From an uncultured Candidatus Saccharibacteria bacterium (GTDB lineage Bacteria; Patescibacteriota; Dojkabacteria; SC72; WJKH01), in contig CAZRRH010000002.1 in assembly GCA_964602665.1 (NCBI GenBank), forward strand, positions 1 through 60,170: DNA of 60,170 nucleotides, given 5' to 3'. How positions within the stretch are numbered: the stretch's first letter is position 1; every line of letters begins with the position of its first letter. Positions 29,897 through 43,242 of this stretch are shown here, piece by piece. The notes beneath the pieces are model-generated. The model ran no database searches. It saw only the letters and a program-made list of their open reading frames with translations, and was not told the DNA's origin. The position numbers and the translations under genes were made by a program.

Positions 29897-30388
29897 ATGA
29901 ATGAAGGGAAATTGGAAATCGTAACACTAAATGATGACGAGCCTTTTTTGAGGCAGAAATCGAGAAATATCACACAAGAAGAGCTCGGAAGTGACAAAAT
30001 ACAACAGTTGATAAGCGCCATGAAAAACTATCTCCTTGACGCGCAAAATAATGCTGTTGGATTATCAGCGATACAAATTGGTCAGCCGATTGCGATGTTT
30101 TTATTCAAGGACTTTGGACAAGGTAAATCCCCAATTATAAGAGTTGCTGTTAATCCGCAGGTTCTTCCCGCTTGTGATTTGCTCAAAGAAGGCAAAGAAG
30201 CGTGTCTTAGTGTGCCTGGTGTTGATGGTGTTGTGGCAAGATATCAGAGTGTCAAGATGAAGTTTTTAGATGAAAAGGGTGATAAATGTTCGAAGAAGTT
30301 TGAAGATTATACTGCGCGAATTATTCAGCACGAGTATGATCACTTGCAGGGGGTTCTTTTTACTGATAAAGTGTTATCCCGCCATTAG
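29897..30388 (+). CDS. def: Peptide deformylase
   Basis: GLSAIQIG, EACLS, QHEYDHL. Confidence 0.96.
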   Translation: MNEGKLEIVTLNDDEPFLRQKSRNITQEELGSDKIQQLISAMKNYLLDAQNNAVGLSAIQIGQPIAMFLFKDFGQGKSPIIRVAVNPQVLPACDLLKEGKEACLSVPGVDGVVARYQSVKMKFLDEKGDKCSKKFEDYTARIIQHEYDHLQGVLFTDKVLSRH

Positions 30389-30408
30389 GTCCTGCCATTA
30401 CTGTAAAG

Positions 30409-30482
30409 CGGAGAATAGCTCAGATGGCTAGAGCACACGCATGGGGTGCGTGGGGTCGCAGGTTCGAGTCCTGTTTCTCCGA
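30409..30482 (+). tRNA. tRNA-Pro(GGG)
   Basis: Acceptor CGGAGAA/TTCTCCG, anticodon arm CACGC-ATGGGGT-GCGTG, T-loop TTCGAGT. Confidence 0.95.
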
Positions 30483-30530
30483 TGGTAATGGCAGGAGGGT
30501 GCGTGAGGTCGTAAGCATGGTTAGGCTATT
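30479..30530 (+). repeat. Left direct repeat (candidate attL)
   Basis: CCGATGGTAATGGCAGGAGGGTGCGTGAGGTCGTAAGCATGGTTAGGCTATT, 48/52 identical to 41186-41237. Confidence 0.85.
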
Positions 30531-30547
30531 GCGGAGCAATGGCCTAA
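30521..30547. terminator. 12-bp hairpin (one G:U) containing the recombinase stop codon
   Basis: TTAGGCTATTGC-GGA-GCAATGGCCTAA; no U-tract, so terminator function is uncertain. Confidence 0.4.
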
Positions 30548-32010
30548 TTCAAGTCGGGTCGCCCCGACCATTCAGAACGAGATTGCATTTTTATAATCTC
30601 GGAAAATGGATTTTTAGCGGTATAATCGAATTTTTCATTGGTAATGATAAAGTTCGAGAATACAAATTGGAGAATTTCTCGCTTTTCTTCTTGTGTCCCC
30701 TGTTTATATATATATGAAGCCATTTTACAGAGTTCGAGAATTTTTAAACCTGTTTCAAAATAAGATTGATTAGCTCTTTTGTGCTTTTTTATAAGGTTTA
30801 ATAGTCTATCTTCATTTTCCTGTTCTTTCTTTGCTTTCTCAAGATAAACTTCTTTTGAAATCAAACCATCTAATTTATCATCGTACAATTGATCTTTTCG
30901 CTTTTGAATACGATCTAACTTTTGTTGCAATGTTTTTAATGCTTCATTATGAAACTGGATTTCATTCGTGTGAGAATTTTTTAAAACGTTTTTAACATCA
31001 TCATAAATATTCTCTGGAATAATAAGCATATCAAGCACTTGTATAATTTCGTCTTCAAGTTTTTCTTCTCTCCAATAATTGTGAGAATGCTTTTTGTAAT
31101 GCTCTGTACATCGATAATAAATATATTTGCCTTTCTGAATTTCGGTCGTATAGCTCGAGCCACAAACACCACATTTAATAAGTCCTGAAAACAGGAAGTT
31201 ATGTTTATCTTTTCTTGGACGTTTTCTGTTATTGAATATTACTTGCACTTTATAAAATAATTCTGGTTCAATTATTGGCTTATGCTTACCTTGATAAGTT
31301 TCACCTTTCCATATCATTTTACCAATATAGAAGGGATTTTGTAAGGTTACGTGTAATTTTGATTTTGATACTTTTTTATTGAATTTATTCACAAACCCTT
31401 CTTTATGTAACTGTTCACAAATGCGTTCTAACGAGAAAAGCTCTGTAGCGTACATTTCAAAAGCTTTTTTTACAAAATGGGCTTGTGAATCATCAATGAT
31501 AACGTTTTTTGTATTTGCATCGTTTTTATATCCAAGTGGAGCTGATCCCGGCCAGCCACCTTGTCGTAACTTTTCCTGAAAACCTTTTTTAACTTCATCT
31601 GAAAGATTGTTAATGTAGTTTTTAGCAAGTACTGCTTGTAAGTCAAAATTTAATTTCTCTGAGGATCTAGAATTTCTATGAAGTACAATATTTTCTCTTA
31701 CAAAGTGAAACTCCTTGTCGTAATCATCAATTAATTCTTGAACTTTTACAATGTCTCTAAAATTTCTTGCTACACGATCTATTTTTTCAAATATTACAAC
31801 TCGTATGTCCGATTTCTTTAAGAATTCAATCATTTCATTAAATGCTTTTCTTCCCTCTTTTTTTGCTGATTCGGAAACTTTCCAACTTTTTTGTACTTTT
31901 AAATTCTGCTTTTCTGCGTAAATACCGATTTTCTCGTACTGAGCATCAAGTGAATATCCTTCTGCCTGTTCTCTTGATGAAACTCGACAGTAGGCAATTG
32001 CTTTATTCAT
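30544..32010 (-). CDS. Large serine recombinase (resolvase + recombinase + zinc ribbon + coiled coil)
   Basis: AYCRVSS.EQ catalytic Ser motif, DRVARN, GGWPG.APLGY, NPFYIG, HKPII, CGVCG...YYRC. Confidence 0.95.
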   Translation of the reverse strand: MNKAIAYCRVSSREQAEGYSLDAQYEKIGIYAEKQNLKVQKSWKVSESAKKEGRKAFNEMIEFLKKSDIRVVIFEKIDRVARNFRDIVKVQELIDDYDKEFHFVRENIVLHRNSRSSEKLNFDLQAVLAKNYINNLSDEVKKGFQEKLRQGGWPGSAPLGYKNDANTKNVIIDDSQAHFVKKAFEMYATELFSLERICEQLHKEGFVNKFNKKVSKSKLHVTLQNPFYIGKMIWKGETYQGKHKPIIEPELFYKVQVIFNNRKRPRKDKHNFLFSGLIKCGVCGSSYTTEIQKGKYIYYRCTEHYKKHSHNYWREEKLEDEIIQVLDMLIIPENIYDDVKNVLKNSHTNEIQFHNEALKTLQQKLDRIQKRKDQLYDDKLDGLISKEVYLEKAKKEQENEDRLLNLIKKHKRANQSYFETGLKILELCKMASYIYKQGTQEEKREILQFVFSNFIITNEKFDYTAKNPFSEIIKMQSRSEWSGRPDLN

Positions 32011-32136
32011 TGTTTACTATCCTTAGATTAAATAAAAAATGGGGATCCGTTGGACACAACTCTGCAAAAACAGAATTGTACAGATCCCCATTTATTCTAT
32101 CTATAACCTTCAGATAGTTAGGTCTGTCTTTGCATT

Positions 32137-32358
32137 TTAAGTTGTGTCCATTTCCATTTTATCATTTTCAAGAAGATTTTTGTACTTTTTTGAAAGGCTT
32201 TTTTCTGTCTTAATCCGTTTATCAATTTTATCAAGTGTTTTTATAAAGCCGACAAGATTAAATAGCGAATTATACGCTTCTTTATCAGATATATTCTTTT
32301 TAAAGTCCTTTTGGTAATTTCTCTTAAAAGAGTTTACAAAAGGTTTTATGTTATCCAC
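32137..32358 (-). CDS. Small helical protein upstream of the recombinase (candidate directionality factor)
   Basis: 73 aa, GTG start overlapping the upstream stop, co-oriented with the recombinase. Confidence 0.55.
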   Translation of the reverse strand: MDNIKPFVNSFKRNYQKDFKKNISDKEAYNSLFNLVGFIKTLDKIDKRIKTEKSLSKKYKNLLENDKMEMDTT

Positions 32359-32687
32359 AAATTGTTTGTGCTTTTATTCCAGCCTATGTATTGAGTTTCT
32401 ACAAGTCTTAAAAGCTCCGATTTAATATCAGATGAATAAATTCCTATCTCAATGAAATCAGAGGGCTTTAAATTGGCTACAGAGCGTCTGCAACCGATTG
32501 AGAATCTGGCAATGAATAAAAGTATTTTGATTTGCCTTTTAGTGAAAATATTTGAAAAAAGAATTGGGTTTAAAAGTGTGAGAGGATTTTTAAGAAATTC
32601 AAGTTTGTCAATTATTTCAATTGGAACAGGAGACAGATTTATTTGTTCTGTTTTATAGCTATTTATGATGTCTCTTATATGTTCCAT
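32346..32687 (-). CDS. Phage replication protein O N-terminal-like winged-helix protein
   Basis: FTKRQIKILLFIARFSIG resembles the lambda O motif LTKRQFKVLLAILRKTYG. Confidence 0.55.
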   Translation of the reverse strand: MEHIRDIINSYKTEQINLSPVPIEIIDKLEFLKNPLTLLNPILFSNIFTKRQIKILLFIARFSIGCRRSVANLKPSDFIEIGIYSSDIKSELLRLVETQYIGWNKSTNNLWIT

Positions 32688-32957
32688 TACTATAAATTTT
32701 CTCGCATGTTCTAGTCATATGCAAAAAAATTGACAACTCTCAGAAGAAGAAAAAGTTAAAATAATATTGATAGTATGGGCAGTTTAAGAGATTACAAAAA
32801 AATCAAAATATATGGTCTACACTATAGTCTGCACACTATAAAAAACAGGGTTAAATAGATAAAAATTATTTAAAAGAGATTACTTCTAAAATTTTCCAAA
32901 AACATACATTTAAAAAATGAGTGTTTTCGAGGATACACATAGTGTCCGTAGTCGAGG

Positions 32958-32998
32958 GAGTGATTGGGTGGAGGTTGCAAACGTCCACCCAATCACTC
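32958..32998. repeat. Perfect 15-bp inverted repeat
   Basis: GAGTGATTGGGTGGA-GGTTGCAAACG-TCCACCCAATCACTC. Confidence 0.9.
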
Positions 32999-33185
32999 AT
33001 ACCGAGAGGAAAATTTTAAGGAATAATCGCGTAAAAGTGACTTTTTTTATAGTAAAGGTAGATTGTTTCTTTTGGTTTCGGAGATGAAATGGGTGGGCAA
33101 CAAAATTGGTTTAGAAATTTAACAAAATATGATATGATATTTCTATTAATAGATTGCTAAAATTAATTGGATTTTGAAATGAAAA

Positions 33186-33389
33186 ATGAATAAAAGCAAA
33201 CTTGCAAAGAATATTAACAAATTTAGAAAAGAAAGAGGTTGGACACAGGAGCAATTAGCAGAAAATTCTGGTGTAACATATACAACTATTATTAAATTGG
33301 AACAGGGAGTTGTTGAAAATCCTATACTTAGAACACTTGAGAAACTGGCAAAAGTGTTTGAAGTGAGTATAGATAATTTGATTAAATAA
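33186..33389 (+). CDS. XRE/C-protein-like HTH regulator
   Basis: LAKNINKFRKERGWTQEQLAENSGVTYTTIIKLEQG..NPILRTLEKLA; 5 nt upstream of mod. Confidence 0.92.
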   Translation: MNKSKLAKNINKFRKERGWTQEQLAENSGVTYTTIIKLEQGVVENPILRTLEKLAKVFEVSIDNLIK

Positions 33390-33394
33390 AGAAG

Positions 33395-35269
33395 ATGCAA
33401 AATTTAAAAGAAAAGCTGTTTGACTTACTAGAGTCAGATACAAGAATCTGGAATGAAGAAAAAACAGAATTGAACGAAACCTTACTGAAAGACATGATTG
33501 ATAAACTTGATGAAAAATTGCTTGAAATACTATTAAGTAGTGAAGATATTAAGGAGAAATTTTTTATCAAAGTAACTCGGACTGAGCAAAGTCGAAGTCA
33601 AGATGTCTATGTGCTGAAGCAGAACGAATTGAAGTTTTTTATTGATGAAAACAAACTTGACAACTCCTATACACAATATAGAAATAAGATTGGGTTAAGG
33701 GTTGGGAATAAATTACTTTCTGAAAGGGATGAGGTTGTGCTTGACTGGCCTTTTAAAGATTGTGTGCTTGAGGGTGGTATGACAAAAGAAGATCAAAAAA
33801 GAAATGAGATATTTTTCAATGAGGTGTTGGCAAAAGATGAAATTGATAGACTGTATGAGCCCAAAGCTCTTGTAAACTGGAAAAGATACACTGCAAAGGG
33901 TGAAGAAAAAGTTACGGAGATTAAAAGAGATAAAGATGGAATGATAAGGGAGAATTTGATTATTAAAGGCAATAATCTTTTAGCCTTGCATACGTTGAAA
34001 AAAGAATTTGCAGGAAAGGTGAAGCTGATTTATATCGATCCACCTTATAATACCGAAAATGGTTCTTTTAGATATAATGACTGTTTTAATCATTCTTCGT
34101 GGCTAGTTTTTATGAGGAACAGATTGGAGATTGCAAAACAATTACTTTCTGATGACGGCTTAATCTTTGTGCAAATAGATGATAATGAGCAGGCATATTT
34201 AAAAGTATTAATGGATGAATTATTCGACAGAGAAAATTTTATAAATTCTATTATTTGGAAAAGGACATTCAGTCATGGTGATTCCGGTCAGGGTGCTAAC
34301 CATCTTGGTAGACTGCACGATGTTATTCTTCTTTACAAAAAATCAGATCAAGGGAAATTAAATAATGTTTATACTGAATATTCAGAAGAATATGTTAAAA
34401 ATTTTTATAAATATACTGATGAGAATGGGCGCAGATATCGTTTAGTAACTATGACGGCACCCGGAGGATCAAATAAAGGAAATCCTTTCTATGAAGTTAT
34501 GGGAGTTGAGAGATATTGGATGTATTCGAAAAAGAATATGGAAGAACTTATCAAGAAGGGGGAAGTTGTTCAAACTAATCGAGGTACCGTACCACAAAGA
34601 AAAAGATATTTAGATGAATCAAAGGGTGTCCCACTACAAGATCTATGGGTTGATATAAACCCGTTGCAGGGAGTACAAAAAGAAAAGGTTGATTTTGTTG
34701 GACAAAAACCCGAAAAATTACTTGAAAGAATAATAGAATTGTCTACAAATCAAAGCGATTTGGTTATTGATTTTCATATCGGGACAGGAACGACTTTAGC
34801 GGTCGCTCATAAAATGGGTCGGCAATATATCGGTATTGAACAAATGGATTATATTCATGATTTGGCGGAGTCACGGTTAAAAGAAGTTATTAAGGGGGAT
34901 CAATCGGGAATCTCAAAAAATGTAAACTGGCAAGGGGGTGGTGACTTTATCTACCTCGAACTTGCCAAGTGGAACGAAGAAGCTAAAGAAAAAATCCTTA
35001 ATGCCAAAAGCCTTGATGAGCTAGTTAAACTATTTGATGAACTCTACGAAAGATACTTCCTTAACTACAATGTTAAAACAAAGGAATTCAAGGAAAAGAT
35101 TGTAAAAGAGGACGAATTCAAGAAACTTTCACTTGATGAACAGAAAAAGCTGTTTGTAGAAATGCTAGATATGAATCAGATGTATGTCAATTTCAGTGAA
35201 AGAAACGATAAAAAATATGGATTATCAGCTGATGATATTAAAATATCAGAAATGTTTTATAGTAAATAA
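33395..35269 (+). CDS. mod: Type III restriction-modification methyltransferase (Mod)
   Basis: NLIIKGNNLLAL, IYIDPPYNT, QIDDNE, KPEKLLERII, DFHIGTGTT, GIEQMDY. Confidence 0.93.
   Translation: MQNLKEKLFDLLESDTRIWNEEKTELNETLLKDMIDKLDEKLLEILLSSEDIKEKFFIKVTRTEQSRSQDVYVLKQNELKFFIDENKLDNSYTQYRNKIGLRVGNKLLSERDEVVLDWPFKDCVLEGGMTKEDQKRNEIFFNEVLAKDEIDRLYEPKALVNWKRYTAKGEEKVTEIKRDKDGMIRENLIIKGNNLLALHTLKKEFAGKVKLIYIDPPYNTENGSFRYNDCFNHSSWLVFMRNRLEIAKQLLSDDGLIFVQIDDNEQAYLKVLMDELFDRENFINSIIWKRTFSHGDSGQGANHLGRLHDVILLYKKSDQGKLNNVYTEYSEEYVKNFYKYTDENGRRYRLVTMTAPGGSNKGNPFYEVMGVERYWMYSKKNMEELIKKGEVVQTNRGTVPQRKRYLDESKGVPLQDLWVDINPLQGVQKEKVDFVGQKPEKLLERIIELSTNQSDLVIDFHIGTGTTLAVAHKMGRQYIGIEQMDYIHDLAESRLKEVIKGDQSGISKNVNWQGGGDFIYLELAKWNEEAKEKILNAKSLDELVKLFDELYERYFLNYNVKTKEFKEKIVKEDEFKKLSLDEQKKLFVEMLDMNQMYVNFSERNDKKYGLSADDIKISEMFYSK
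33575..33598. repeat. 24-bp REP-like palindromic element, in frame inside mod
   Basis: ACTCGGACT-GAGCAA-AGTCGAAGT (7/9 arm pairs) encoding TRTEQSRS. Confidence 0.65.
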
Positions 35270-35271
35270 TT

Positions 35272-38046
35272 ATGGATGATCAAATATTACAACAACAAGT
35301 TGAATCTGAAATAGGTAGAAAAACCATTTCAAAAATAAAGATTCCTGAATATATCACTAGTAATATTAAGCATGATCTCTGGCAGTGGCAGATCGAGGCC
35401 TTACAATACTTCATAGCATATGATGATCCTGAGTATGACTTTGAAAGAAGTTTCAGCGCCCCTGTACATCTAATGTTTAACATGGCAACCGGAACAGGTA
35501 AAACAGTACTCATGGCTTCACTGATTCTTTATTACTACAAAAAAGGTTATCGCCACTTCATCTTCTTTGTAAATCAAAATAATATTGTAGATAAAACTGA
35601 AAACAACTTTATCAATAAAAACCATAATAAATACTTATTCAAACAAAACATCGTAATTGACGATAAAACAGTAAATATCAAGAAAGTCGAAAGTTTTGAT
35701 GATAGTGATGATATTCAGATCAAATTTACTTCCATTCACAAGTTACATAATGCAGTTTATCTGGCAAAAGAAAACGCTGTAACGCTTGAAGATCTGCAGA
35801 AAAGGAATCTTGTGATGATTGGTGATGAAGCTCACCACTTTAACGCCTCAACGATGAAAAACGGACAAATGAATTTAGATATGCCGACTGAGCTTAAAGA
35901 TAATTCAAGTGCCAGTGATGTTGAAAGAAGCTGGGAAAATACTGTTTTGAATAAAATACTTAAAAAAGAAGGTTATTCAGGACAAAGTGAGAACAGAAAT
36001 GTTTTGCTTGAATTTACTGCGACTATTCCAAACAATCAGGAAGTAAAAGAGAAATACCGCACAAAAACAATATATAAATACGAATTAATAGACTTTCTTA
36101 ATGCAGGATACACAAAAGAGATAAATTTAATTTCCACTTCTTTAAATAAAAAAGAAAAAATCCTGTTAGCACTACTCTTTAATTGGTATAGACACAAGAT
36201 AGCTTTATTAAATAACATTCCCAATTTCAAACCAGTTATTTTATTTAGAAGCAAATACATTGAAGAATCAAAAAATGACTATCGTGAATTTTTAACAACA
36301 GTAAAAGAATTACAAAAAACTGATTTTGAATTTTTATCAAGCATTGAAAAGAAACTGCAATCAGAACAAAGGTCAGTTCTAAAAGTATATGAGCAAGGTG
36401 CAAGCAGGATAAAACAAATGATTGGATTTATTAATGAGCAGAATATTGACTTTAACGACATTATCAGTTTTATAAAAGCTGATTTTGATGAAAGAAATTG
36501 CATTATTACAAATTCAAAGGATAATAAGACTACAACAAAGGAAAAAACGACAGAAGAACAGGAACAGCTTTTAAACAGCCTTGAGGATAAGAATAATCAT
36601 ATTAGAGCAATATTTACAGTTAAGCGTCTTACAGAGGGCTGGGATGTGCTAAATCTATACGATATCGTAAGGCTTTACGAAGGTCGTGACGAGGGTCAAG
36701 ACAAAAGCGGAAAAAGAAAGGCAGGAGAAACAACAACGCAGGAAATTCAGCTTATCGGGAGAGGTGTAAGATATTATCCTTTTGAATACAAAGAAACAGA
36801 AGCAAGTAAAAGGAAGTTTGATGAGGACTTAGAAAATCCGTTAAGAATATTAGAAGAATTTTATTTTCATAGCGAAAATGATATTAGATATCTGGATGAA
36901 TTAAAACGTGAATTAAAGAATAAAGGATTTATTCAGGATAATAGGATTGTTAAAAAGTATAAATTAAAGGAGGATTTTGAAAACACGGACTTTTTCAAAG
37001 AAGTAAAAGTTTGGAAAAATGAAAGAATTGATAATCCTGAAAAAAGAAAGCTCAATTTATCTGAAATAAAAACAGATCCACAATTTAACCCGTTTACTTA
37101 TGAAATTAAAGGATTTTCTCTAAAAGAACAGAAAGTTGACCTTAATGAAAAGTTTGATAATGTATTGGCAGAGTCAAAACCAGCATACAAAAGATCGATA
37201 CAGATATCTTTCAAAGAGATAGATAAACACATAATTAGAAAAGCAATAAATATCAAGGCAAAAGCAGATAATTCAATTCTGAAATATGAAAATTTAACCA
37301 ATGAATTAAACATCTCCTCGATTGATGATATATTCAATGATAAATATCTTGGAGATATGAAATTCAATATCATTACAGAAAGCGAAACCGTAAATTTATC
37401 AGATATAAGTGCAGATGATTTGTTAAATTGCTTACTGATTTTCTTTGAGCAATTCACAAGCAAACTAAAGGAGATTAATAATCCATATAAAGGTGATACA
37501 AAGTTTAAACACTTCTCGTTTAAAGAATTATTTGGAGAACAAAAAGAAAAGAGCGTTTTAATCGATGAGGAAAGCAAACTACTTGAAGATGAAATGCTGA
37601 AATGCAAGTGGTACGTATTAAATGGTTTCAACGGTACGAGTGAAGAAAGAGAACTACTTGATTTCTTAAAAAAGAGAATTGTTAATCTACAGGAAAGATA
37701 TGATCAGGTATACCTACTTAGAAATGAAGAAGTATATAAAATATACGATTTTGAGAAAGGTAGAGGATTTGAACCTGATTTTCTTCTATTCCTAAAAGGG
37801 AAAAATAAAACACTTTATTATCAAATTTTCATTGAACCAAAAGGAGATGAATTCAAGGATAAATCAGGATTATTCACTGAAAGTAAGGAAGGATGGAAAG
37901 AAGAATTTATGAAACAAATATCTCATAAATATGGTAATGGAGAGATTTTGAAAGCCGAGAACAGAAAATATGTTTTATATGGTTTACCTCTTTTTAATAG
38001 TAAAGATAAACTAAGTTTTGAAAATGAATTTAATAAATTTATTTGA
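35272..38046 (+). CDS. res: Type III restriction endonuclease (Res)
   Basis: SF2 motifs MATGTGKT, DEAHH, FTAT, LTEGWDV, QLIGRGVR; nuclease FEPDF...IEPKG. Confidence 0.93.
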   Translation: MDDQILQQQVESEIGRKTISKIKIPEYITSNIKHDLWQWQIEALQYFIAYDDPEYDFERSFSAPVHLMFNMATGTGKTVLMASLILYYYKKGYRHFIFFVNQNNIVDKTENNFINKNHNKYLFKQNIVIDDKTVNIKKVESFDDSDDIQIKFTSIHKLHNAVYLAKENAVTLEDLQKRNLVMIGDEAHHFNASTMKNGQMNLDMPTELKDNSSASDVERSWENTVLNKILKKEGYSGQSENRNVLLEFTATIPNNQEVKEKYRTKTIYKYELIDFLNAGYTKEINLISTSLNKKEKILLALLFNWYRHKIALLNNIPNFKPVILFRSKYIEESKNDYREFLTTVKELQKTDFEFLSSIEKKLQSEQRSVLKVYEQGASRIKQMIGFINEQNIDFNDIISFIKADFDERNCIITNSKDNKTTTKEKTTEEQEQLLNSLEDKNNHIRAIFTVKRLTEGWDVLNLYDIVRLYEGRDEGQDKSGKRKAGETTTQEIQLIGRGVRYYPFEYKETEASKRKFDEDLENPLRILEEFYFHSENDIRYLDELKRELKNKGFIQDNRIVKKYKLKEDFENTDFFKEVKVWKNERIDNPEKRKLNLSEIKTDPQFNPFTYEIKGFSLKEQKVDLNEKFDNVLAESKPAYKRSIQISFKEIDKHIIRKAINIKAKADNSILKYENLTNELNISSIDDIFNDKYLGDMKFNIITESETVNLSDISADDLLNCLLIFFEQFTSKLKEINNPYKGDTKFKHFSFKELFGEQKEKSVLIDEESKLLEDEMLKCKWYVLNGFNGTSEERELLDFLKKRIVNLQERYDQVYLLRNEEVYKIYDFEKGRGFEPDFLLFLKGKNKTLYYQIFIEPKGDEFKDKSGLFTESKEGWKEEFMKQISHKYGNGEILKAENRKYVLYGLPLFNSKDKLSFENEFNKFI

Positions 38047-38079
38047 ATGCACAAATAGTATAATTTTAATTTTATTTAT

Positions 38080-38304
38080 ATGATAGATATTGGAAAAAGC
38101 AAAATTTCTCTCACATGCCCTTTATGTAAGTTTATTAACCATGTTACTTTAGAGGATGTTTCAAAAGGGAAGTCAATTATATGTAATGGATGTTTAAAAA
38201 CAATTAAACTTGTAGACAATGAAGGTTCGACTAAAAAAGCCATAAAAACGATCAAACAAGCTACCAATGATTTATCCAATAATTTGAAAAGATTATCTAA
38301 ATGA
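38080..38304 (+). CDS. Small zinc-ribbon protein
   Basis: CPLC-x16-CNGC followed by an amphipathic helix; own TATAAT at 38059. Confidence 0.7.
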   Translation: MIDIGKSKISLTCPLCKFINHVTLEDVSKGKSIICNGCLKTIKLVDNEGSTKKAIKTIKQATNDLSNNLKRLSK

Positions 38305-39170
38305 TGGAAATAAGATATATTCGAAAAAACTTACAAAGTAAAAAAGAAGAACTTCTATCCGCAAAATATCAATTAGCGGAGAAACGATTAAGTGACTTTA
38401 TCGAATACTGCAAGGGAAATCAAATTATTAGCAAAATAATATCTGAACTCCCAAATATCGAAATAGATTTTGAAAAATGGGAAGCAGAACTATGGGGAGC
38501 TTCTGACTATGGTATCCCTGATGATTATTCTGAAGCAGCAAGTTACTGTTGGGAAATAATTACTAAATATAGGGGTAGATCTGTTAATATTGCACAGAAT
38601 TTTCATGTGTCCTCAAATAAGATTACAGACCATGTACAAGAGTATTTTGAATCATTTGTTCCATTTATTTATGATTACATAGACAATAAATTAATTGAAC
38701 TTGAGGAAATCATTAGCCCTCTGGATATGGTGTCCGAGGTTCATGCCCTTGTAAATACAGGACTTTCGGAAAATTATCCTGAAATTCAAAAACGATTAAA
38801 TGATGTTTATAAAAGACTATATATATCAGAATCAAATGATGAATATGTGGGTATAGCTAATTCTTGCAGATTAATAATTATTGATTTTGCAACATTAATA
38901 TATAAATCTGAATACTTACCATCAAATGCAGAAGTCCCGAAAAATGATGATGCAAAAGTAAAATTGAAATATACCTACAGAAACTCAAATTCTGGTATTT
39001 CTAAATCAATATTAGAAGGACGTGAAAAATTTATTGATTCTATTTGGCAGATAGTTTCTTCATCCGTTCACAGGAAGAATATTCATAAAGAAGAAATAAA
39101 GGAGGTAGTCTTGTTAACATATCTTCTATTATCTTCTTTTATAAAAACAATGAATAAAAAATTAATTTGA
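38301..39170 (+). CDS. Hypothetical protein with an abortive-infection-associated-like C-terminal domain
   Basis: EYVGIANSCRLIIIDFATLIY...PKNDDAKVKL resembles helical domains recalled from Abi-linked defence proteins; ATGA overlap with upstream gene. Confidence 0.45.
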   Translation: MMEIRYIRKNLQSKKEELLSAKYQLAEKRLSDFIEYCKGNQIISKIISELPNIEIDFEKWEAELWGASDYGIPDDYSEAASYCWEIITKYRGRSVNIAQNFHVSSNKITDHVQEYFESFVPFIYDYIDNKLIELEEIISPLDMVSEVHALVNTGLSENYPEIQKRLNDVYKRLYISESNDEYVGIANSCRLIIIDFATLIYKSEYLPSNAEVPKNDDAKVKLKYTYRNSNSGISKSILEGREKFIDSIWQIVSSSVHRKNIHKEEIKEVVLLTYLLLSSFIKTMNKKLI

Positions 39171-39694
39171 TAACTTACAAAGCCATGCAACCATATAAAC
39201 CACATAAATTACCCATAAAAGAACTAAATTGGGTTGAATTTATACCATATTTAGGCAATGCTAGAGATAAACTCGCAAAATTTGATGGATTATTACAAGG
39301 AATCCCAAACCCAAGAGTTCTTTTATCTCCTTTAACAACAAAGGAAGCTGTACTCTCATCAAAAATCGAAGGAACTCAAGCAACACTTGAGGAAGTACTA
39401 AAATATGAAGCTAATCCATCTGCGACTCAAGGAAAAACTGAGGACATAAAAGAAGTACTCAATTATAGACAAGCTCTCATGTATGCAATTGATCGCCTTG
39501 ATAAACTCCCGCTAAGTGAAAGACTTATCAAAGAGGTACATAAAATTCTGCTTAAAGATGTTAGATCAAATACTGGAATGCTAGGAGAATTTAGAGATGG
39601 ACAGGTTTTTATTGGTAAGGATGGAACTATGTCAAGTACAGATTACCCAATGATTCAGAAATTAATTAGTAATGACCAGTTTCATGTTTTATGA
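39167..39694 (+). pseudogene. Fic family protein, N-terminal part only
   Basis: YKPHKLP, LAKFDGLL..IPNP, KEAVLSSKIEGTQATL, LIKEVHKILL, GEFR; ends before any HPFxDGNGR motif. Confidence 0.8.
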
Positions 39695-39910
39695 GAATTT
39701 GCAAAAACTTGTAAAACAAAAACACTGTTACAATGGGAGTTTTATCATTTTTTACAAGTTTATGATGATAATTTTTACATAAGGAATGAGAGCTAATGTT
39801 TATATTTTTAAAAATAACTGAAAGCTAGTGATATGCAATAGACTGACCGCTACAAAGCTAGAGGGCGGTTAAATACATATTCACTGACTACTAAATTAAA
39901 AACTTAAAAT

Positions 39911-41113
39911 ATGATAAAACCAAAATTTACATTTGAAAAAATTAAGTTCTCAATAGATCCCTCTACGCTTAAAAAAGCAATTGACCTATACGAAACAGGT
40001 AAAATAAAGGATTTTAAAGAAACAGCTTATTGCTACACTGCAAAGGTTCAAGGAACAAGTTTATATAAAGTAACAGTAGATATAGATCATTATGATTATG
40101 GAGATTGTGACTGTTATATAGGAAAACAGGGTGACTTATGTAAACATATGATAGCAGTTGCAATATATGCACTGTTTAGAGGAGACAAAATCCCAGAAGA
40201 TAGCATAGAAGTTTTACTACATCCTGTTTGCAGTAATAAAATAGGAGAATTAAATGAAAGTGAACTAGTAGAGGTTAAAGAGAAAATTTCACAGGCAGTA
40301 AAATTAATAAGAGCTTACTCAGGACCATCAAGCACATGGTTTCACTATCAGAATAAGCTATCAGAAGCTGTGAATCGACTAACGGAGGTAGTCTCGAAAA
40401 TGCCTGTAAGCTATCAAACTACTGATATTTTAATAAGACTTCTTGTAAGACTCGATAAAAAGCTTGTAAGTGGTGGAGTTGATGATTCGGATGGAACTGT
40501 TGGAGGTTTTATTACCGATGTCGTTGAAGTCTTAAAAGAGTTTGCAAAACTAGATGAGAAATGTTTAAAGGCATTTAATAAACTTAAAGGAGTCAGTACC
40601 TGTTTTGGTTGGGAAAATTCTTTGTTGCAGTTAATAATGCCAAGCCATCTTTTCTATATAACTAAGATACGTGATGAGCTGAAAATGTACGGCTATCAAG
40701 TTGGAGATATTGAGTACACATCTAACAATTATGATGAAAAAGGTAAACTTATTACAAAAAAGATCCCCACAGTTACATCAAAATATGGAGAAATGGGTAT
40801 AATAGAAGGTAAATTTTATCTTGTAATAATTTTTAAGAAGGAGCTATTATCAGAAAAATTTCTTAAAGACATAGCCAAAATAAGAAAATATAAACTGTAT
40901 GGATTTAATGATTTCTTAAAGGATATTGATATTAAAACAGTATTTTCAGAAGATTTTAAGGAAAAATACATTCAAATACAGTATGGTGATATAATTGAAA
41001 CAGACTATTATGAAATCATTAGGATTCACGATAAGTTGAAAAATATGTTTTTAGAAAATAAGATTTATCCAATTAATCAACTGAATATAAATTTAAGATC
41101 CGAAATTGTCTAA
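39911..41113 (+). CDS. SWIM zinc-finger protein with an unrelated C-terminal extension
   Basis: CDC-x8-CKH (CDCYIGKQGDLCKHMIAV), GGVDDSDG. Confidence 0.75.
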   Translation: MIKPKFTFEKIKFSIDPSTLKKAIDLYETGKIKDFKETAYCYTAKVQGTSLYKVTVDIDHYDYGDCDCYIGKQGDLCKHMIAVAIYALFRGDKIPEDSIEVLLHPVCSNKIGELNESELVEVKEKISQAVKLIRAYSGPSSTWFHYQNKLSEAVNRLTEVVSKMPVSYQTTDILIRLLVRLDKKLVSGGVDDSDGTVGGFITDVVEVLKEFAKLDEKCLKAFNKLKGVSTCFGWENSLLQLIMPSHLFYITKIRDELKMYGYQVGDIEYTSNNYDEKGKLITKKIPTVTSKYGEMGIIEGKFYLVIIFKKELLSEKFLKDIAKIRKYKLYGFNDFLKDIDIKTVFSEDFKEKYIQIQYGDIIETDYYEIIRIHDKLKNMFLENKIYPINQLNINLRSEIV

Positions 41114-41185
41114 AAACCTTCCTATATAAATTGAAATTATCTACAATCTCTATAAAGCTGAAATTCGTAAGTACGTCTTTCAACC

Positions 41186-41237
41186 CCGATAGTAGTGGCA
41201 GGAGTGTGCGTGGGGTCGTAAGCATGGTTAGGCTATT
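41186..41237 (+). repeat. Right direct repeat (candidate attR)
   Basis: CCGATAGTAGTGGCAGGAGTGTGCGTGGGGTCGTAAGCATGGTTAGGCTATT, 48/52 identical to 30479-30530. Confidence 0.85.
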
Positions 41238-41283
41238 TTAAAGACTTGGTATAATTCAGATCATTTATTATAATAAAATAATT

Positions 41284-43242
41284 ATGTCTACAGAGCAGAT
41301 ATACGGTATACCAGAACAGCCACCAATGCCATCGGTTTTACTAGGCAAAGAGTATCAGCCAGACAGACCTATAAGCGAAACATTTTACCAAGCATTAGAG
41401 GAACAGAATCCTTTCATGACATCAACTCAACTAGAAAGTTATCTAAGCAATAGGGGTAAAAGTACCTCTCTCTCTCCAGAGAAAGAAGAGCGAATAAGGT
41501 TAACTCGTATTGGAGAGATTTTTTCCTTGTCAAAAATTATTTACCAAAGTGTTCTACTAGAAGACTATTCGATTGACGACGCAAATGTATATCCAGAGAT
41601 AACTGAGCTTCGCAGAGTCTTAAATGATATGAAGAAGCAAGTAAATGAAGAATCAGATCCAGAAATAAAAGAACAACTCAAAAGGCAACTTTACTTTGCT
41701 GAGCTACAATTTTTACTAGAATGCTCAAAATATGCATCAGGCATAGTTGATACAAATGATAGAAAAAAAATCAAAGAGATCAAGAGAGGAACCCATTCAA
41801 CTAAATTAACACAAAAAATATACCGCATTGCTACTCCAATTGCCCTTGCAACGACATTAGCTATCTCATCAGGCTGTTCTGCAACAGGTCAATCAGTGAT
41901 TCCCCAAACAACGCAATCAATCGAGGGAAAATTTATCATAAATGGGATTGACTATACAGATAAATTTGGAAGTATGCATAATCCAGAAGAGTTTTGTAAA
42001 GCAGATTTTGATTCACAAAGAGAATATAAAAGACACTTTCCCGAAAACCTCCCAGCCATTCTTGAAAGACTTATAAAAACTAGAGATGTCGCGACAGATC
42101 CTGCTTTAAAAGACCAAATTGAAAACGCAATTATTTCAATCGTGGTCGACTCAGAAATTCCTCTTACACAAGATCAAATTAATGTAAGTGGAATATATTT
42201 TCAAGTTGGTCCATTTGGAAATTTAGAACCATACTTGGATATTTCAGATACAAATATGACCTTGGTAAATTTAGGATATTCTGTAGAGTATTATCTTAAT
42301 GGACAAAGAGTTAAATTAAATCAAGATTCTTCAACTAAATCTCAATTGCCTATTCAAGCCAATTCAAACTTGACATTAAGGATAATGGATTCAATGGGGA
42401 ACATAGTTTTACAGATAGGATACTCCCCTTTAACAAAAATTGGAAATTCGATCCAATATGAACCTAGTGGAACAATGTATGATTCTGTTTTACCTCTTGA
42501 TCAGTACGGAATTACAGAAGATGATCTTGTACCAATAAGAGAAGTAGTTAATAAATTTAATTCTTTAGGTCTAAGTGGAATTAATAGAGTTCAAATTGTG
42601 CCTTTGAGAGATAACAGGGTTGGAGCTCTTTACGATCATCCGCACAAATTAATTACTATTAATACTAATTCGCTTACACAGGATGATGATAAAACAATTT
42701 TAATACAGATTTATCATGAATCTGCTCATGATCTTTTTGCTACAATCACAGGTAATTATCAATATCCTAGTTCTTTAGAGTTAGAAAACGATTACTATAA
42801 TAAAAGATTGCAGGCGCTAGGATTGCAACCTCACGGACAAATTGAGACGCAAACAACTTTCGAAAGCCCTTATCTGACAAGGTATAATGATTTGTTCGAT
42901 CGATTTAATTCTTTAGGAGAAAAAATTTATGCATTTTTTGGCGGTGGCGGTGGCCATCCCGAGAATCCAACTGAATTATTCGCTTCTGCAGTAGTTTATT
43001 TATACGGAGCAAATAGTGAAGAATTAAATCGCCAATTCCAAAAACTCAATGAAGAAGAGAAAAGAATGGTTATAGAAATTTTTAGAACAACATTACTTGC
43101 TTTTCATCCTGATGTGTCTTACGCAAGAATTTCCTCACAAGTATCAGGCCTTCAATCATATGAATTGTCTGATTTCTTTAATCCAGACATCCTGAGATTT
43201 GTCGATGAGCAAGATGCTATAATAAACGGCAACAAAGAATAG
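41284..43242 (+). CDS. Large protein with an internal lipobox-like segment and a C-terminal zincin metallopeptidase motif
   Basis: LAISSGC (Cys198), HESAH (478-482), PTELFA (Glu564). Confidence 0.6.
   Translation: MSTEQIYGIPEQPPMPSVLLGKEYQPDRPISETFYQALEEQNPFMTSTQLESYLSNRGKSTSLSPEKEERIRLTRIGEIFSLSKIIYQSVLLEDYSIDDANVYPEITELRRVLNDMKKQVNEESDPEIKEQLKRQLYFAELQFLLECSKYASGIVDTNDRKKIKEIKRGTHSTKLTQKIYRIATPIALATTLAISSGCSATGQSVIPQTTQSIEGKFIINGIDYTDKFGSMHNPEEFCKADFDSQREYKRHFPENLPAILERLIKTRDVATDPALKDQIENAIISIVVDSEIPLTQDQINVSGIYFQVGPFGNLEPYLDISDTNMTLVNLGYSVEYYLNGQRVKLNQDSSTKSQLPIQANSNLTLRIMDSMGNIVLQIGYSPLTKIGNSIQYEPSGTMYDSVLPLDQYGITEDDLVPIREVVNKFNSLGLSGINRVQIVPLRDNRVGALYDHPHKLITINTNSLTQDDDKTILIQIYHESAHDLFATITGNYQYPSSLELENDYYNKRLQALGLQPHGQIETQTTFESPYLTRYNDLFDRFNSLGEKIYAFFGGGGGHPENPTELFASAVVYLYGANSEELNRQFQKLNEEEKRMVIEIFRTTLLAFHPDVSYARISSQVSGLQSYELSDFFNPDILRFVDEQDAIINGNKE

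Follow-up and report, generated by a model that had tools for sequence, protein, structure and literature searches.

A serine recombinase gene that ends in the relic of a tRNA-Pro gene in a Dojkabacteria genome

Results

An intact tRNA-Pro gene is followed by the broken 3′ half of another

We analyzed a 60,170-nt stretch of contig CAZRRH010000002.1 (assembly GCA_964602665.1), hereafter the window, from an uncultured, ultra-small member of the Dojkabacteria. It carries an intact resident tRNA-Pro(GGG) gene, behind it the 3′ half of another tRNA-Pro, and a large serine recombinase gene that lies at the left end of a mobile island and reads into this relic from the opposite strand (Table 1). The relic, its hairpin, T-loop and acceptor strand and the end of the recombinase reading frame were all recovered where an initial annotation of the sequence had mapped them.

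Table 1 Features of the locus (window coordinates)
Feature	Position	Strand	Basis or remark
Dispersed palindromic repeat, two left arms in tandem	30378–30401	+	Inner arm, 30390–30401, is the left arm of the clamp
Resident tRNA-Pro(GGG), intact, without encoded CCA	30409–30482	+	ARAGORN; Rfam RF00005, 58.1 bits
Right arm of the clamp	30485–30496	+	Arm comparison, folding
Older tRNA-Pro(GGG), relic part 1 (anticodon position 35 to 5′ T-stem strand)	30497–30515	+	T-stem strand decayed
32-nt insertion between T-stem and T-loop	30516–30547	+	12-bp GNA-loop hairpin (30521–30547)
Large serine recombinase, 488 aa (Resolvase, Recombinase, Zn-ribbon)	30544–32010	−	Gene spans attL
Relic part 2 (T-loop to discriminator), forming the host arm of attL	30548–30567	+	Core CCCCGA at 30562–30567
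CCA, first bases of the element (most likely)	30568–30570	+	Trp481 codon on the minus strand
Mobile island, 10.6 kb	30568–41183		Lies between the two repeat units
73-aa ORF and lambda-O-like wHTH ORF, upstream of the recombinase	32137–32687	−	Order kept in related elements
Cargo: HTH regulator, type III R-M mod and res, 289-aa ORF, Fic_N fragment, DUF3201/SWIM-like ORF	33186–41113	+	
Element arm of attR, a T-loop-like motif followed by core CCCCGA	41164–41189	+	Core at 41184–41189
Second, more decayed unit, host arm of attR	41190–41262	+	Arm, tRNA part 1, broken hairpin, T-loop remnant

The resident gene is enclosed by a perfect inverted repeat whose arms are complementary at 12 of 12 bases; of 3000 random position pairs taken as a control, one had at least 12 complementary bases. 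The arm motif has 23 matches in the genome against about one expected, marking it as a dispersed palindrome family, and an Rfam search returned nothing but the tRNAs. The outer palindrome arm also provides the stop codon of a peptide deformylase gene, which ends within the arm (window 30376–30388).

Within relic part 2, the T-loop (30548–30554), a T-stem strand (30555–30559) and the acceptor strand (30560–30566) follow one another and are succeeded by A. The hairpin that had been described as the interruption is present, with one T·G pair and a GGA loop, but the full insert extends to 32 nt. The hairpin folds more stably than shuffled sequence, with a z-score of −4.6 as RNA (0 of 200 shuffles) and −3.9 as DNA. 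The two T-stem strands of the relic do not pair with each other.

With the insert removed, the relic matches the tRNA-Pro(GGG) genes of relatives at 34 of 39 positions and the resident tRNA at 30 of 39, which bears out the earlier view that the two alleles differ. The first 15 nt (30497–30511) agree with the resident gene at 14 positions; the last 20 nt match Pro(GGG) of relatives at 19 and the resident at 14. Since the best non-Pro tRNA reaches at most 24/39 (184 tRNAs compared), a chance resemblance to tRNA was rejected. By these scores, which favor the relatives' genes over both the resident and non-Pro tRNAs, the relic is a real Pro(GGG) allele of a type common in this order of Dojkabacteria, and not a random decay product of the resident gene. 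The proposed comparison with tRNA-Pro genes thus gave a clear match and no exact donor: neither the 120 genomes sampled from the order nor the 401 from the phylum, two overlapping samples, held an exact copy of the 20-nt 3′ end (best, 19/20). The exact hairpin was also absent from JGI metagenomes, in a search that possibly did not cover near-identical records.

The recombinase gene runs through its own attachment site

The Resolvase, Recombinase and Zn-ribbon domains of the recombinase occur in this order with Pfam scores above the cut-off; the protein has the catalytic serine motif YCRVSS and matches the TP901-1 integrase in the PDB. Its C-terminus, WSGRPDLN, had been read as relic antisense throughout. 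This is true of the last seven residues (482–488), which are the antisense of relic part 2, but Trp481 is most likely attributable to the element, and the stop codon (30544–30546), in the minus-strand reading, sits in the hairpin arm. Similarly, a CCA does follow the relic as annotated; because Trp481 is invariant among close homologues and the junctions of all close relatives read CCGA and then CCA before element sequence, this CCA is most likely part of the element rather than of the relic, and everything 5′ of the core would be host DNA. As the gene extends across the attachment site of its element, its tail is host-derived.

Among 93 distinct homologous loci, 61 recombinase genes read into an intact tRNA, two read into a duplicated 3′ end (this locus and L034) and four have an attP-type tail, the rest being unclassified or cut off. 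Overlap with the attachment site is therefore a rule for the clade and not peculiar to this locus. The tails follow the site: a 95%-identical protein (P0002) ends in WSG and a stop, and others continue through tRNA-Pro(TGG). Integrated tails are arbitrary and range from 2 to over 20 residues. That recombination changes the recombinase C-terminus, as had been supposed, is evident from this comparison, in which near-identical elements end differently at different sites.

L034 is instructive as to the origin of the tail. Its recombinase gene is 92% identical, and its flank is 97% identical to G002, a genome of the same family that has a different recombinase on an intact tRNA-Pro(CGG) site. The L034 protein ends in WSG and a stop, and the duplicate on which it sits equals the tRNA-Pro(CGG) end of its own host at 20/20 positions, which speaks against the element as carrier of the tail; nor does this element include a repeat unit of the relic type. 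A 165-bp module lies between tRNA and element at L034 and may have arrived after the element. The initial annotation had allowed either another host or an older allele as the source of the relic. Because the tail belongs to the host side of the crossover, and the 92%-identical element carries its own host's tRNA end, an older host allele fits better than import from another host.

A second repeat unit forms the far end of the island

The relic proved to belong to a repeat that flanks tRNAs across the genome, and a second unit of it lies at the far end of the island; the initial annotation had missed this. Units 1 and 2 form a 73-nt ungapped repeat of 82% identity; they share derived bases and the same insert in the alignment. 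A 52-bp repeat, which begins at the last four bases of the real tRNA, is matched at 48/52 positions, and the next best match in the genome reaches 32/52. The attL and attR sites themselves share only the 6-bp core CCCCGA, and their element-side flanks are unrelated. The right junction contains neither a displaced tRNA end nor a CCA, only the core and the internal tRNA piece of unit 2.

An assembly artefact was rejected, as the same junction is present in an independent JGI contig. For the island right end, the only other record is 100% identical, and thus supports the sequence but adds no diversity. Searching viral contigs for the right-end motif gave nine chance matches, all without the core; no spare inverted attP was seen within the island, and no empty site or excised circle of this locus was found.

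Several minor features were noted in and near the island. The decayed hairpin arm of unit 2 (window 41246–41255) now has the sequence of an extended −10 promoter motif and lies 29 nt ahead of a 652-aa ORF at 41284. The Fic_N ORF (175 aa, window 39167–39694) has no Fic domain and appears to be truncated cargo, and a hairpin upstream of the recombinase start (window 32029–32101) gives a weak, non-significant Rfam match. The genome has four more serine recombinase genes or fragments (G000 C9:11889-13325, C9:18326-19099, C9:24019-25110 and C1:193391-194620), two of which adjoin tRNA-Asp and tRNA-Ala(CGC) and one of which has an attP-type tail.

The circle form and the significance of the tail swap

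Across homologues, the Arg of a hydrophobic-Arg-Thr motif is fixed eight residues past the Trp. When the end of the reading frame was predicted for the circle (attP) form, a check that had been proposed earlier, exact joining of the island ends gave a 39-residue tail out of this conserved register, whereas a frame one base shorter placed Y-L-R-I in register with a stop at similar length. Since the register is missed by the exact join and met one base shorter, the right end of the island is probably damaged by one extra base; its attR element arm is one base longer than in relatives.

AttP-type junctions occur naturally in a 59%-identical subclade (L070 and G002 C44), where the T-loop-like motif is more distant from the core, by 5 bp, than it is in a tRNA. 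For this island the corresponding offset is 6 bp, and we infer that the motif serves as a binding site; in serine integrases, the binding motif is offset by 5 bp between attP and attB (PMC3783163). Proteins P0142 and P0133 have 12-residue tails with a Y-V-R-T motif, and members of the same cluster on tRNAs end in WSG and a stop. The two recombinases with an attP-type junction in the chromosome (L070:7117-8430 and G002 C44:2490-3626), one behind a 5′–3′ exonuclease gene near tRNA-Pro(CGG) and the other broken and with no tRNA within the 12 kb examined, are possibly tandem islands.

The tail swap had been proposed to act as a directionality switch. A regulated switch of directionality or stability would be compatible with the anatomy: the tails do change upon integration, the spacing between the Trp and the hydrophobic-Arg-Thr motif is constant in attP-type tails, some of which continue with a longer hydrophobic stretch, and the integrase of phage Mx8 offers a precedent (PMC6070905). 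However, all Pfam domains and the last helix of the recombinase are complete ahead of the junction, and a tail of the circle type is predicted to be disordered, the 12-residue attP tail of P0142 having a pLDDT below 50 with few aligned residues there. Moreover, overlap with the DNA binding site accounts for the conserved motif, integrated tails are arbitrary, the exact join at this island misses the register, and the overlap typifies a whole clade rather than this locus alone. We thus regard a switch as doubtful, and the tail swap as most likely a tolerated by-product.

Units of tRNA halves flank other tRNA genes of the same genome

A clamp arm followed by the local tRNA 3′ half, starting near the anticodon, is also found behind tRNA-Pro(TGG), Arg(GCG), Arg(CCT) and Arg(TCT), and an arm variant with a 3′ half is found behind Pro(CGG), the fifth further tRNA of the genome. 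The units at these five tRNAs are mostly tandem, and at four of the five loci 5′ halves with the opposite arm stand upstream. In this layout, a complete tRNA is placed within a broken copy of itself. The 32-nt insert has equal length and position in the Pro(TGG) and Arg(GCG) units and in the relic. The nearest units at the five other tRNAs match their own tRNA; the mismatch at the present locus therefore requires allele replacement.

Degenerate hairpin and arm-plus-anticodon patterns were found only in this genome among the 201 and 90 genomes searched, and 200 other genomes of the class yielded no unit of this type. Modules of other sequence that end in a tRNA tail lie behind tRNA-Pro in several relatives: in L009, L014, L017 and L033, tRNA-Pro is followed by a 130–160-nt hairpin-rich module ending in its own 3′ end, and in L009 and L033 this copy is then followed by CCA. 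In the present genome, tRNA-Gly(GCC), Ser(GCT) and Ser(GGA) (G000 C2:91990-92200, C3:5450-5712 and C1:114600-114809) have structured modules of ~110–140 nt behind them that end in the last 13–16 bases of the tRNA, two with a related hairpin. At tRNA-Arg(CCT) and Arg(TCT) (G000 C1:215600-216500 and C1:238600-239370; L207 and L208), tandem 5′-half units lie upstream and 187–188-nt 3′-half units, each with two inserts, lie downstream; both sets carry the same derived D-loop change, indicating that units at different tRNAs share history. Stand-alone MITE-like palindromes assembled from this same repeat arm (13–14 bp) also occur (G000 C1:66762-66835, C1:143943-144191 and C3:92057-92118), some with tandem sub-units, and the arm likewise closes the long variable arm of tRNA-Ser(CGA) (G000 C1:109955-110074).

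Among known repeats, the tRNA-linked repeats of E. coli, or RtT repeats of tyrT, follow a tRNA gene in tandem, each unit finishing with a copy of the tRNA 3′ end, and the units described here share this arrangement. Unlike RtT repeats, they begin at the anticodon behind an inverted-repeat clamp, contain a hairpin insert in the T-arm and often have a mirror image in upstream 5′ halves; the Rfam RtT model gave no match at E up to 5. With REP- and MITE-like repeats, the units have in common short dispersed palindromes, tandem sub-units and GNA-loop hairpins, but no cognate transposase was found and the arms here enclose a whole tRNA gene.

Discussion

The anatomy of the locus, both of its junctions and the site-dependent tails are observed, and they are in our judgment probably best explained by a host tRNA gene that was split, a 3′ half that was duplicated, and an island that then integrated at the first copy. 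An older tRNA-Pro(GGG) would have been split near the anticodon by a cassette with palindromic arms that carried a complete replacement tRNA-Pro, the present resident. The left-over 3′ half would then have gained the 32-nt hairpin in its T-arm and undergone tandem duplication, as at other tRNAs of this genome. An element with a tRNA-Pro-targeting large serine recombinase, needing only the last ~20 bases of a tRNA-like end, would have integrated at the end of the first copy by crossover within CCCCGA, leaving the second copy at the far end. With attP within the last codons of the recombinase gene, the integrated enzyme would end in filler from the host arm, reading up to the first stop codon, which here lies in the hairpin. 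The order of events, the exact crossover and the origin of cassette and hairpin are our reconstruction.

This history is suggested by the units of arm, 3′ half and insert that five other tRNAs possess, often arranged in tandem and in four cases accompanied by upstream 5′ halves; by the better fit of the relic to Pro(GGG) of relatives than to the resident, together with the derived bases shared by unit 2; by the bare 6-bp core at the right junction, the 61 of 93 loci on intact tRNAs and the host-matched tail of L034; and by the natural attP-type junctions of L070 and G002 C44 with their 5-bp offset. Counting against it, no upstream 5′ half survives at this locus, no empty allele or exact donor allele was found, the relic T-stem strands are unpaired, and the allele mismatch, unlike the self-matching nearest units at the five other tRNAs, calls for a replacement of the allele.

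A layered order of events appears unlikely. The island would have entered at a then-functional tRNA-Pro, of which the relic is the allele, with unit 2 behind it, and a second cassette bringing the resident tRNA would later have pushed the old 3′ half and the island away. Such an order would explain the foreign-allele end of the relic, the prevalence of homologues on intact tRNAs and the two left arms upstream of the tRNA, and the module at L034 may likewise be a later arrival; against it, units 1 and 2 share derived bases and an insert, which is unexpected for a recently functional tRNA half, and an extra conversion event is required.

That the element itself brought the foreign sequence, either as the 3′ end of a previous host's tRNA or as the whole 52-bp repeat acting as a long att core, is in our view improbable. 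Integration would then have occurred at the real tRNA end, as in islands of tyrosine integrases, and the start of the 52-bp repeat at the last four bases of the real tRNA and the foreignness of the last 20 nt of the relic to this genome's tRNAs would follow naturally. Yet the 92%-identical element lacks a unit of this kind and has a tail equal to the tRNA of its own host, the unit type is native to this genome and was not found in the 200 others of the class, no displaced resident 3′ end stands at the right junction, and a short core suffices for serine integrases.

It is highly improbable that the relic is a working RNA, as an intron-containing, split or permuted tRNA with its hairpin spliced out. 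In favor, the insert is identically placed in three units, with wobble pairs that favor folding on the tRNA strand; against, each such locus has an intact tRNA, the relic T-stem is unpairable, there is no matching 5′ half, and Rfam and ARAGORN detect nothing at the relic. A role as a decoy protecting the tRNA was rejected, as 3′-end integration leaves tRNAs intact.

The closest published case is the integrase of Myxococcus phage Mx8: attP lies within the integrase gene and the altered end changes specificity (PMC6070905, PMC4383910). The two are alike in layout, with attP inside the integrase ORF, a new 3′ end upon integration and two neighboring attB sites, but not in family; Mx8 Int is listed among tyrosine recombinases by Islander (PMC4383910) and the enzyme here is a serine recombinase, of which only ~7–12 terminal residues, outside all domains, are swapped. 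With the large serine integrases (Listeria LI/A118, TP901-1, phiC31 and Bxb1; PMC3783163), the recombinase shares the Resolvase, recombinase and zinc-ribbon/coiled-coil architecture, the short core and, in relatives of this element, a 5-bp shift of the putative binding motif between attP and attB (6 bp in this island); it differs in that the target is a tRNA 3′ end and the gene spans attP. According to the 2015 Islander paper, serine integrases were not known to target tRNA genes (PMC4383910). Our literature search found no paper on serine integrases whose gene spans attP at tRNA ends, nor on clamped tRNAs within broken copies of themselves in Patescibacteria.

What is particular to this locus is an integrase on a dead, allele-mismatched tRNA half, where two features, both widespread among such bacteria, meet. 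The serine integrase here sits on a nonfunctional tRNA-like end of 20 bases that differs from the host's tRNA, which narrows the attB needs of the large clade. More speculatively, and with little confidence on our part, the pseudo-tRNA units of Patescibacteria might serve as reserve attachment sites, making tRNA hotspots longer, and one lineage of tRNA-targeting serine recombinases might prefer them, with the host-supplied tail and the hairpin stop codon setting the activity or lifetime of the integrated enzyme; the preference is suggested by the position of both this element and its 92%-identical relative on duplicates.

The locus also bears on annotation. As in the tRNA islands recognized by Islander and TIGER, a tRNA, an integrase-bearing island and direct repeats at both ends are present, but the far-end repeat is a second host unit rather than a displaced tRNA 3′ end, and the tRNA fragment adjoins the tRNA on the integrase side. 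The 52-bp repeat would lead island finders to the real tRNA as the left end, 85 bases too early. Elsewhere in the genome, ARAGORN mislabels tRNA-Ser(GCT) as Lys.
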